A program made the position numbers and the translations under genes. This document shows, piece after piece, positions 25,163-27,280 of a stretch of DNA of 64,000 nt (position 1 is its first letter; each line of letters opens with the position of its first letter). The stretch covers positions 416,001-480,000 of the forward strand of contig CAWKDB010000011.1 of assembly GCA_963848295.1 (NCBI GenBank), read 5' to 3'. The notes below the pieces were generated by a model that worked only from the letters and a program-made list of their open reading frames with translations, searched no databases and had not been told where the DNA came from. This stretch comes from an uncultured delta proteobacterium. GTDB lineage: Bacteria > Myxococcota_A > Polyangia > Haliangiales > Haliangiaceae.

Positions 25163-25401
25163 CATCGGCATCGGCATCGGCATCGGCATCGGCATCGGCA
25201 TCGGCATCGGCATCGGCATCGGCATCGGCATCGGCATCGGCATCGGCATCGATCGCATCGCGCATCGGCATCGGCATCGGCATCGGCATCGGCATCGCCA
25301 TCGCCATCGGCATCGGCATCGGCATCGGCATCGGCATCGGCATCGGCAGCGGCATCGGCATCGGCAGCGGCAACGGCGTCGGCAGCGGCAGCGGCAGCGG
25401 C
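25163..25401. repeat. Hexamer microsatellite (GGCATC)n grading into (GGCAGC)n
   Basis: About 14 perfect CATCGG units, then degenerate units. Confidence 0.97.
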
Positions 25402-25449
25402 TTGTTTGACTCCCGCAAAGGCTGCCGGATTCAGCGCCGGCGCGCGCGC

Positions 25450-25770
25450 TCACCGCGTGAGCCTGAACAGCATCGCGCGAACGCGATCGAGTGGCGCCTC
25501 GATCGCGGCGAAGTCCTCGGCGGTGATGTAACCGCGCGCCTTCGCGATGAGCAGCGCGGTCGACAGCTCGCGCGCGCTGCCGAAGGCGCGGCGGAACATG
25601 TCGGGCCGATCGAGGCCGGCGCGTGCGCTCGCTTCGGCGATGTTGAGGGCCACGCTCTCGGCGGCGCGGCCGATCTCGTCGGCGAGCGACTTGCGGCGAG
25701 CCCGAAGCTTCGGCTCGATCGGAGCGAGCTGTTCGAGGACGGTGAGCGACTGAGCGAGGACGTCGAGCAT
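25450..25770 (-). CDS. Four-helix-bundle protein (23S rRNA IVP / Avd-like family), copy 1
   Basis: LADEIGRAAESVALNIAEA...FRRAFGSARELSTAL...ARGY; 106 aa; GAAAGG RBS. Confidence 0.9.
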   Translation of the reverse strand: MLDVLAQSLTVLEQLAPIEPKLRARRKSLADEIGRAAESVALNIAEASARAGLDRPDMFRRAFGSARELSTALLIAKARGYITAEDFAAIEAPLDRVRAMLFRLTR

Positions 25771-25792
25771 TGGCGTGGCCTTTCGTGGATGA

Positions 25793-25993
25793 GCGGCGCA
25801 CCGATTCGCCGGGGCCGTCTCGCCCGTCGCGCCGCACTCGCGCCGGCGCCGTGACGAGCGCGGGCACAAATCTCCGCACGCGTCGGTCGATCCAACTCTG
25901 CGGCGGTCGTTCGCACGCGTCGGTGGCCTCGGCGCTCGGCGCGGCGCTGGCGCGAAGCGGCGCAGGGCGACGGCCCCGGCGATCGGAAGCCGC
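25793..25993 (-). ncRNA. Putative structured RNA/hairpin leader of four-helix-bundle gene, copy 1
   Basis: Long rod-like inverted repeat homologous to 26182-26378, with compensatory changes. Confidence 0.65.
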
Positions 25994-26007
25994 GAGGGCC
26001 GAGAGGT

Positions 26008-26160
26008 GGCGACGGCGACGGCATCGGCTTCGGCGTCGGCGGCGGCAGCGGCGTCGGCGGCGGCAGCGGCGGCGGCAGCGGCGTCGGCGGCGGCAGCGGC
26101 AGCGGCTCCGGCTCCGGCTCCGGCTCCGGCTCCGGCTCCGGCTCCGGCTCCGGCTCCGGA
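26008..26160. repeat. Central hexamer array: (GGCRNC)n followed by 9 x GGCTCC
   Basis: Read directly. Confidence 0.95.
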
Positions 26161-26181
26161 ACTCGACGCTCACTCGCTCGC

Positions 26182-26378
26182 GCCGATGAGCGGAACGTCT
26201 CTCTCGCCCTGCGCCGCTTCGCGCGGGTCCCGCGCCGAGCGCCGAGTGCGCCGGCGTCTGCGATCGACCGCCGCGGAGTTGATCGGCCGGCGATTGCGGT
26301 GGTCAGCGCCCGCGCTCGTCACGGGACCCGCGCGAGTGCGGCGCGACGGGCGAGAGAGAGACGTTCCTACCCATCGGC
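26182..26378 (+). ncRNA. Putative structured RNA/hairpin leader of four-helix-bundle gene, copy 2
   Basis: GGAACGTCTCTCTCGCCC pairs with GGGCGAGAGAGAGACGTTCC; TCGCGCGGGTCCCG pairs with CGGGACCCGCGCGA; further nested stems. Confidence 0.65.
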
Positions 26379-26399
26379 CACTCACTTCGGAGGATCATC

Positions 26400-26723
26400 A
26401 TGTCGTTCTACGCCCTCGACTTCGCCCTCGCCGTCCTGCAGCAGCTCGCCCCGATCGAGGCCAAGGTCCGCCGCACGCGCAAGTCACTCGCCGACGAGAT
26501 CGTCCGCGCCGGCGAGAGCATCGCCCTCAACGTCAGCGAAGGCCGCATGCGCGTCGGGCTCGATCGCCCGGACTTCTTCCGGCGAGCAGCCGGCAGCGCC
26601 AGCGAGCTCACCACCGCCCTACTGATCGCGCGCGCGCGAGGCATCATCACCACCGAGGACTTCGCGGCGGTCGACGAGCCGCTCGACCGCGTCCGCGCGA
26701 TCCTGTGGCGGCTCACGCACTGA
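26400..26723 (+). CDS. Four-helix-bundle protein (23S rRNA IVP / Avd-like family), copy 2
   Basis: [19 protein letters not shown]...[25 protein letters not shown]; about 70% identical to copy 1 by manual alignment. Confidence 0.92.
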
Positions 26724-26787
26724 GCGCTTGCGCCGGCCGCCGCGCCGGCGAAACCGATTTCGGCACCCTTCGCCGGGCCCAACGAAC

Positions 26788-27280
26788 GGATACGGATCCG
26801 GCAGCGGATCCGGCAGCGGATCCGGCAGCGGATCCGGCAGCGGATCCGGCAGCGGATCCGGCAGCGGATCCGGCAGCGGATCCGGCAGCGGATCCGGCAG
26901 CGGATCCGGCAGCGGATCCGGCAGCGGATCCGGCAGCGGATCCGGCAGCGGATCCGGCAGCGGATCCGGCAGCGGATCCGGCAGCGGATCCGGCAGCGGA
27001 TCCGGCAGCGGATCCGGCGGCGGCGGCGGATACGGCAGCGGATACGGCAGCGGATACGGCGGCGGCAGCGGATACGGCGGCGGCAGCGGATACGGCAGCG
27101 GATACGGCAGCGGATACGGCGGCGGCAGCGGATACGGCGGCGGCAGCGGATACGGCAGCGGATCCGGCACCCGCGGCGGCAGCGGATACGGCACCCGCGG
27201 CGGCAGCGGATACGGCAGCGGATACCGGCGGCGGCGGCGGATACGGCACCCGCGACGGCAGCGGACACGGCGGGGCGGCT
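26788..27280. repeat. Tandem array: 18 x GGATCCGGCAGC, then GGATAC/GGCAGC/GGCGGC hexamer mosaic
   Basis: Read directly; perfect 12-mers span 26794-27009. Confidence 0.97.

Follow-up and report, generated by a model that had tools for sequence, protein, structure and literature searches.

Among described systems, those closest to the locus reported here are the ORF-bearing intervening sequences (IVSs) of 23S rRNA found in Coxiella and Leptospira. According to the consulted sections of PMC4990558, these carry a PF05635 protein, S23p, within a stem that is cut out by RNase III, and the function of S23p is unknown. The cassette that we describe encodes proteins of the same family and fold, that of the Xcc0516 homopentamer, and it shares with the IVSs, as those sections of PMC4990558 present them, a long stem tied to a gene and a sporadic, selfish-looking distribution. 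Unlike the IVSs, it is flanked by protein genes, and no Rfam covariance model matched between positions 24500 and 28000 of our sequence (0 matches at E ≤ 1). Its stem closes before the RBS, 5′ of the ORF, whereas the IVS stem, in the portion of the literature consulted, encloses the ORF; and it exists in ten or more intergenic, hexamer-flanked copies with an ORF under purifying selection, whereas the IVS ORF is described there as decaying. A second comparison is offered by the Avd protein and Sp RNA of diversity-generating retroelements (DGRs), for which the consulted text of 10.1101/2023.10.23.563531 reports that all five protomers of Avd take part in binding a stem-loop. The fold and the presence of a structured nucleic acid beside the gene are common to both systems, but the cassette has no adjacent reverse transcriptase (RT) and no adenine-biased variation.

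Further points of likeness exist with repeats that recombine or move. The 13E12/DUF222 repeats have been found to recombine and to invert the chromosome (PMC13157036, PMC10589994), and, like the cassette, the REP13E12/DUF222-HNH units are multicopy and dispersed, with copies that recombine and rearrange the chromosome, at least in the parts of these papers that were consulted. The nuclease genes that accompany our hairpin in congeners give weak DUF222 and HNH matches, a further resemblance; the cassette in our window, in contrast, encodes no nuclease, and in the consulted passages of both accounts, neither a hairpin arm nor a microsatellite nor any four-helix cargo is mentioned. REPs, according to the consulted part of PMC3733652, favour convergent and unidirectional gaps, and REP/REPIN elements with their RAYTs resemble the cassette as intergenic palindromes, often between convergent genes, with inverted pairs around a multicopy enzyme gene. 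The cassette hairpin, however, exceeds theirs in length five- to tenfold, comes with a gene and with arrays, and shows no association with the RAYT-like genes of this genome. The hallmarks of insertion sequences and MITEs are a transposase or terminal inverted repeats, and a target duplication. The cassette is similar to them in being a dispersed multicopy unit of about 1.6 to 2.1 kb that is absent at orthologous sites, but it has no transposase, no outer terminal inverted repeats, no target duplication and ragged array ends. An identity as an insertion sequence or MITE was therefore rejected, since the ends are direct-polarity arrays and only two PF05635 ORFs lie inside. We found no description of the cassette in the literature searched, which covered sources other than subscription papers and supplements, and term searches of the accessible text of PMC6006769 and PMC3592412 returned nothing relevant. 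The dispersed cassette is real and, apparently, undescribed.

Organization of the cassette

The window, by which we mean the whole stretch of 64,000 nucleotides that was analysed, comes from an uncultured delta proteobacterium, by its gene content probably a myxobacterium, and the cassette occupies positions 25163 to 27280. Read from the sequence, the same order of parts occurs twice, back to back: array, hairpin, RBS, PF05635 gene, trailer and array. The block lies between two convergent host genes, a C45/AAT-family gene (C45-peptidase-like, PF03417; 23307 to 25157, plus strand) and a FecR-domain gene (27279 to 28760, minus strand). The left hexamer array (25163 to 25401, plus strand) consists mostly of (CATCGG)n in 40 copies, starts 5 bp past the C45 stop codon and, as do the other two arrays, has the polarity CGGCNN on the plus strand. 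Unit A follows on the minus strand, with a trailer that is conserved among copies (25402 to 25449), ORF A (25450 to 25770; 106 aa, a PF05635/TIGR02436 four-helix-bundle protein), a weak, purine-rich RBS read from the sequence (GAAAGG, 25779 to 25784) and a hairpin of 201 nt (25793 to 25993), the conserved core of which, GCCGAGCGC..GCGCTCGTCACG, lies at 25850 to 25940. The middle hexamer array (26008 to 26159, plus strand) is common to both units and varies in unit and length from copy to copy. Beyond it, unit B reads on the plus strand from a hairpin of 197 nt (26182 to 26378; core at 26234 to 26323) through an RBS that lies outside the main stem (GGAGG, 26389 to 26393) to ORF B (26400 to 26723; 107 aa, PF05635/TIGR02436, a predicted four-helix bundle) and a trailer in its short form (26724 to 26792). 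The right array (26793 to 27271, plus strand), mostly (CGGATCCGGCAG)n, a 12-mer built of two hexamers, stops a few bp short of the FecR stop codon. A scan of 25100 to 27350 for sigma-70 promoters and terminators found none, a result that is uninformative at such GC content.

Units A and B form inverted repeats that are about 76% identical, and the homology runs from the leader through the ORF into the trailer and tapers off at the arrays. A first-pass annotation of this DNA had described such a layout, with homology that extends past the ORFs and ends near the arrays and a block set between two convergent host genes, and each of these parts could be located. Its trailer of about 50 nt agrees with unit A only, as that of unit B measures about 65 nt in the window copy and up to about 180 to 225 nt in other copies.

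The four-helix proteins

The products of ORF A and ORF B are 67% identical, with 35 of 106 amino acids differing overall and, in the alignment from A residue 5, 31 of 102, the count that the first-pass annotation had given. The family that it had named is confirmed by profile scores, as both proteins pass the curated cut-offs of PF05635 (46.0 and 53.6 bits against 33.8) and TIGR02436 (48.1 and 50.1 against 24). From 21 aligned homologues, AlphaFold predicts a four-helix bundle (pLDDT 95), which is most similar in structure to Xcc0516 (2GSC), BT_0352 (2RLD) and Avd (4DWL, 8UBx) (TM 0.79 to 0.88); for the Avd structures, the TM is 0.8 to 0.84 at 12% identity. By likeness to these relatives, the A and B proteins may be homopentamers as well. 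In the ten copies of the pair that the genome contains, 19 of the 20 ORFs are intact, and pN/pS is 0.144 within A (leaving out copy C10:728k, in which A is truncated and which was likewise left out of the trees) and 0.186 within B, which indicates that the ORFs are under purifying selection.

Dispersed, mosaic copies in the genome

A profile search of this genome (7.8 Mb, 85% complete) gave 31 PF05635 matches. Ten dispersed copies of the whole A+B pair, with 90 to 97% amino acid identity, contribute 20 ORFs, and there are also one diverged pair, one solo unit and one fragment. The earlier view of a self-contained, non-autonomous cassette is in keeping with these ten whole copies, each with only two PF05635 ORFs. 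The locus might be seen as an inverted duplication that arose once in an intergenic region prone to repeats, or as an assembly artefact, given that its two units are inverted repeats of each other. Nevertheless, the ten copies are dispersed and have distinct arrays, related units occur in other genomes, and public metagenome runs of two studies have contigs with variants of unit B (four DNA runs queried with unit B without its arrays, which yielded fragments and no joints). For the element, this explanation is refuted, and we give it almost no credence. The stably syntenic one-off duplication that the first-pass annotation had set against its own proposal gives way to ten copies and to empty sites in relatives.

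The copies are recombinant mosaics, although some of the mosaicism could stem from the assembly of repeats. Among nine copies (C10:728k was left out), incompatibility affects 61% and 54% of the informative site pairs and declines at short range, and a PHI-like test gave p values of 0.0002 and 0.0004. The A distances and B distances across copies show no correlation; co-descent of A and B was considered and dropped, as the trees are stars without signal. Overall, we are highly confident that the cassette is multicopy, recently spread and recombining.

The distribution of the copies also brings to mind a REP/REPIN-like DNA hairpin that is moved by a RAYT-like Y1 transposase and has the four-helix gene as its cargo. 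The genome has nine PF01797 genes, 6 of the 10 copies lie between convergent host genes, as is often the case for REPs according to the consulted part of PMC3733652, and one intergenic site is occupied by a Y1 gene here and by a four-helix unit in the relative G014. However, a hairpin of 200 nt is far from the 20 to 40 bp of REPs, and the repeat that flanks the nine Y1 genes is a different one, the cassette hairpin being absent from all nine loci, which led us to reject the RAYT-like genes as partners and to consider this origin very improbable.

Empty sites and exchanged flanks

Orthologues of the C45 gene were found in 23 of 24 congeners. The first-pass annotation had suggested looking for empty sites between the C45 and FecR orthologues, and the element proved absent at all 19 relative C45 loci that were read, none of which has a PF05635 or FecR match within 1.5 kb (three of these loci are shorter than that, and one is from G010). 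At 18 of the 19, a different convergent gene lies 0 to 200 bp from the C45 stop codon. For 5 loci this gene was traced, and each time its orthologue here forms the right flank of copy C2:611k. On its left, the same copy is flanked by the orthologue of the gene that stands convergent with FecR in 2 of 5 relatives. These placements show that the sites of the window copy and of C2:611k have exchanged flanks reciprocally, by recombination or by misassembly.

Other copies, searched for their flanks in relatives with C10:728k left out, show various relationships. The flanks of C11:318k and C10:4855k are adjacent in relatives, with gaps of 48 to 342 bp, while C2:861k marks an inversion breakpoint with respect to 4 of 7 relatives. 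C2:1462k, C10:512k and C2:1181k lie in stretches of 3.4 to 4.4 kb that are absent at that place in relatives and hold one or two extra genes, and for C10:1502k one flank was found. The empty sites are mostly without an array in relatives, although at about 70% amino acid identity between the genomes this may not reflect the state before insertion. As a baseline, 6 of 46 adjacent gene pairs are broken in 400 kb of G011, including 2 of 4 convergent pairs. A rearrangement hot spot was considered and set aside, as this baseline is too small and convergent junctions are labile anyway; we claim no rate.

The hairpin leader

Both hairpins fold more stably than 200 shuffled sequences (z of -5.8 for the 201-nt and -7.5 for the 197-nt hairpin), and their basal stems pair even though the A and B sequences differ. 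Among 24 aligned leaders, both sides change at 6 of 20 pairs, with 36 double-change cells against 12 in shuffles. The invariant core is no evidence of conservation, because it served as the search pattern. Over 39 leaders, the outer arms are paired at 1885 positions, and their mismatches are strongly skewed, with 152 pyrimidine-pyrimidine and 6 purine-purine. The sense strand has no excess of G-U (48, against 65 A-C, among which one conserved core position is counted), and the opposite, outward-reading strand has the lower folding energy in 35 of 41 hairpins as RNA and in 39 of 41 as DNA. As judged from these sequences, the predicted structure is strand-specific.

In this genome, all 24 hairpin matches are at four-helix units. 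The exact pattern matches 14 of 23 congeners, some of them by chance. A scan of 150 other genomes of the phylum with the exact pattern, beyond whose reach diverged hairpins lie, gave seven matches in one congener and three single, chance-like ones elsewhere. The hairpin of the first-pass annotation is upheld by covariation and by the fold scores, but it is not specific to the four-helix gene, given the HNH genes found next to it in congeners.

Hairpins beside DUF222-like/HNH genes

In G003 and G005, no four-helix profile matches at E ≤ 1e-8, and yet the hairpin pattern occurs 6 and 10 times, respectively. In these two genomes and in G007, G013 and G023, the hairpin lies near a multicopy ORF of 360 to 630 aa with weak DUF222 and HNH matches; for these partner ORFs, DUF222 is over the cut-off in 1 of 5 and HNH under it in 3 of 5. 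The association is most extensive in G023, in which 11 of 13 HNH genes have a hairpin within 216 to 639 nt, upstream in 6 and downstream in 5, and the side of the hairpin that faces the HNH ORF is always the one that faces the four-helix gene. The 11 loci are paralogous copies and not independent events. In G017, G018 and G020, inward-facing hairpin pairs enclose convergent four-helix pairs; in G007 and G005 (2 of 2) they enclose HNH genes, and in G005 a further such pair spans a stretch with no ORF; this survey left out six pattern matches without profile support. At one G017 locus, an array is followed by a hairpin, then a four-helix gene and then an HNH gene. The two cargos are intermingled in a tree of the hairpins, which needs 5 to 6 changes of cargo, of which well-supported branches force only 1.

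The association is not uniform. The PF02720 profile has no match in this genome, and the two DUF222-like/HNH homologues found by sequence, which look intact and have the full HNH motif, have no hairpin beside them. The exact pattern was found near none of 5 HNH genes in G011 and near none of 12 matches in G017; by profile, among those tested, the hairpin is present at 0 of 2 in G011 and 1 of 5 in G017. The HNH loci are mostly without hexamer arrays. The GxxExxY family (PF13366) has no match in this genome, and in G002 one hairpin precedes what we take, by eye, to be a GxxExxY-like remnant. The first-pass annotation had proposed a search for a co-distributed RT, HUH or other nuclease; HNH genes do stand beside the hairpin in congeners, but in this genome neither the RT matches nor the Y1 genes are tied to the cassette. 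The link between hairpin and nuclease is best taken as a lead.

The hairpin might instead act as a regulatory RNA leader of genes that are useful to the host. As such a leader, it might be an RNase III site or a site of autoregulation to which the Avd-like protein binds; the copies would then have arisen passively, through ectopic recombination of repeats that needs no nuclease dedicated to it, and the HNH genes would have gained the repeat independently. This would fit the position of the hairpin in four-helix units, where it is always in sense orientation directly 5′ of the RBS, as well as the selection on the ORFs, the HNH genes of this genome that have no hairpin, and the binding of Avd to an RNA stem-loop with flipped-out bases that is reported in the consulted text of 10.1101/2023.10.23.563531. 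On the other hand, a sense strand that lacks G-U bias speaks against an RNA leader, as do a hairpin that is downstream and antisense at 5 of 11 HNH genes of G023 and its occurrence in G003 and G005, the two genomes with no four-helix match; moreover, its patchy presence among congeners and the lineage-specific bursts fit selfish spread better. We consider a regulatory leader unlikely, while granting it real weight.

The hexamer arrays

Long CGG-type arrays are concentrated around the family, as 24 of 37 in the whole genome have a PF05635 gene no more than 1.2 kb away. The flanking arrays are direct repeats at all 19 units scorable for both sides, out of 23 units, and their polarity is fixed by subfamily, in that the sense strand of B units reads CGGCNN (10 of 10) and that of A units reads the complement (7 of 7 that were scorable; this count left out one chance pattern match). 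Array unit and length are distinct at each of the ten copies, and in the six copies between convergent host genes the arrays extend nearly as far as the stop codons. Adjacent units are identical at a frequency of 0.37 against 0.13 when shuffled (C10:728k was left out), and such local clustering is expected for slippage. Beyond this genome, the hairpin and upstream array recur with much more distant four-helix homologues, but relatives' four-helix units mostly have no downstream array. The expected co-occurrence of hairpin, trailer and microsatellites thus applies to the ten copies here and, as regards the upstream array, to relatives, with the downstream array mostly missing in the latter. No target duplication was detected over nine copies, the match of own flanks being 5.7 nt against 6.0 nt for mismatched flanks (C10:728k was left out, and ends are hard to place within arrays).

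The arrays bear on a further possibility, spread through an RNA intermediate, in which an Avd-like pentamer would bind the hairpin RNA and recruit an RT in trans, which would copy the unit into hexamer tracts or add such tracts to it. The fold match to the Avd of DGR complexes, the ragged ends, the truncated copies, an intact group II intron RT in the genome and the group II introns that border a second four-helix family are all consistent with this. In contrast, a search of the genome with PF00078 gave four RT matches, none beside an A/B copy, and the two RT ORFs scanned are of the group II intron type. Neither is there an adenine bias, since the variable fraction is 0.22 for A, 0.20 for G, 0.15 for T and 0.13 for C (again leaving out C10:728k), and both the clustering of array units and the lack of a target duplication speak for other processes. 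In addition, the apical loop motif shifts between subfamilies while the arrays stay alike, and the same observation led us to reject a loop-templated, telomerase-like synthesis of arrays, as these do not follow the loop motif. An RNA intermediate thus seems less probable still than a regulatory leader.

A possible mode of spread

Ten copies at sites that are empty in relatives, together with a hairpin that stands beside predicted nucleases in relatives, suggest that the cassette is probably a selfish element, one of a kind not yet described, and its ragged ends, direct arrays, mosaics and swapped flanks make copying or exchange by recombination the simplest account. We therefore favour a non-autonomous selfish cassette that would spread by recombination and with no transposase of its own. 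The hairpin would serve as a strand-specific DNA end and the co-directional hexamer tracts as sites of landing and exchange, while the four-helix protein, with its Xcc0516/Avd fold, would likely bind the hairpin. A nick or break would be supplied in trans, for which the DUF222-like/HNH nuclease is the best candidate, and could start either copying of the gene-conversion type or excision and re-entry through the arrays. Given that A and B have opposite array polarities on their sense strands, a single shared array forces them into opposite orientation, and the divergent pairs (here and in G023, G020 and G009) and convergent pairs (G017, G018 and G020) could be circular permutations of one unit. 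The arrays would then grow and change locally by slippage. As a complete mechanism this is tentative, and even at best we consider it slightly likelier to be wrong than right.

A bolder proposal, to which we give a good deal less credence and about as much as to the regulatory leader, is that of a new class of element, with hairpin ends, an HNH motor, an Avd-fold pentamer as a hairpin-binding accessory on non-autonomous copies and microsatellites as attachment sites. Its units would circularise, re-enter and reshuffle the chromosome via co-directional microsatellites. Were this true, it would provide two large orphan families with a function and suggest that the rRNA intervening-sequence ORFs and Avd had a free-living origin.

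Independently of its mechanism, the cassette places PF05635 proteins in a small, repeated unit alongside a defined nucleic-acid partner, so that binding and mobility can be tested directly. The common hairpin ties these widespread proteins to the DUF222-like/HNH family, the spread of which is likewise unexplained in the consulted parts of the papers cited above. If confirmed, the proposed mode of spread would mean that genes can disperse and genomes rearrange without a transposase or integrase, and it would account for the long intergenic microsatellites of such genomes.

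Other PF05635 layouts and repeat arrays

The genome of the window (G000) also carries a second PF05635 family, which is enclosed by terminal inverted repeats in a MITE-like layout and is found at contig positions C2:271k, C2:436k, C2:797k, C10:261k, C10:2647k, C10:3175k, C10:3467k, and C10:4056k. Short hexamer runs and a CTAG lie close to the ends. At C2:797k and C10:3467k, the repeat boundary coincides exactly with the position of group II intron ends, and other copies of the family are broken up by group II intron fragments. A solitary PF05635 gene (C8:9516-9824), with inverted (GAGCCC)n runs on both sides, represents a third layout for these genes. 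At two places in the window (29502-29664 and 57774-58106), the heptamer CAACAGG forms short arrays that are inverted relative to each other, and a CGG-type array at 19545-19736, near which no four-helix gene is present, lies in a predicted coding region and encodes Ala-Ser-Gly-Thr-Ala-Pro repeats.

RAYT-like genes and shared intergenic sites

Loci L070-L078 and C10:2181k of G000 include nine RAYT-like Y1 genes, most of which have in common an upstream repeat with the end GTCCACAGG; part of this repeat is also found 3′ of one of the two DUF222-like/HNH genes. One intergenic gap, with a ribosome-recycling-factor-like gene on one side and a kinase gene on the other (each labeled by eye), is occupied by a four-helix unit in the related genome G014 (L125, contig C17) and by a RAYT-like gene in G000 (C10:3657-3660k). 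In another congener, G005, an insert of ~190 bp with inverted ends, different from the window element, lies directly 3′ of the stop codon of the peptidase-like C45 gene, at the site that lacks the window element in relatives (L041).

Hairpins with a possible third cargo or none

Elsewhere in G005 (L177, contig C74), two identical copies of the leader hairpin of the four-helix units face inward, ~1 kb apart, in a stretch that is devoid of ORFs, with partial tandem copies on the outer side of each. At L016 in the congener G002, the hairpin is followed on its 3′ side by a remnant that, by eye, resembles a GxxExxY nuclease and is possibly a third cargo of the hairpin, in addition to the four-helix and DUF222-like/HNH genes.
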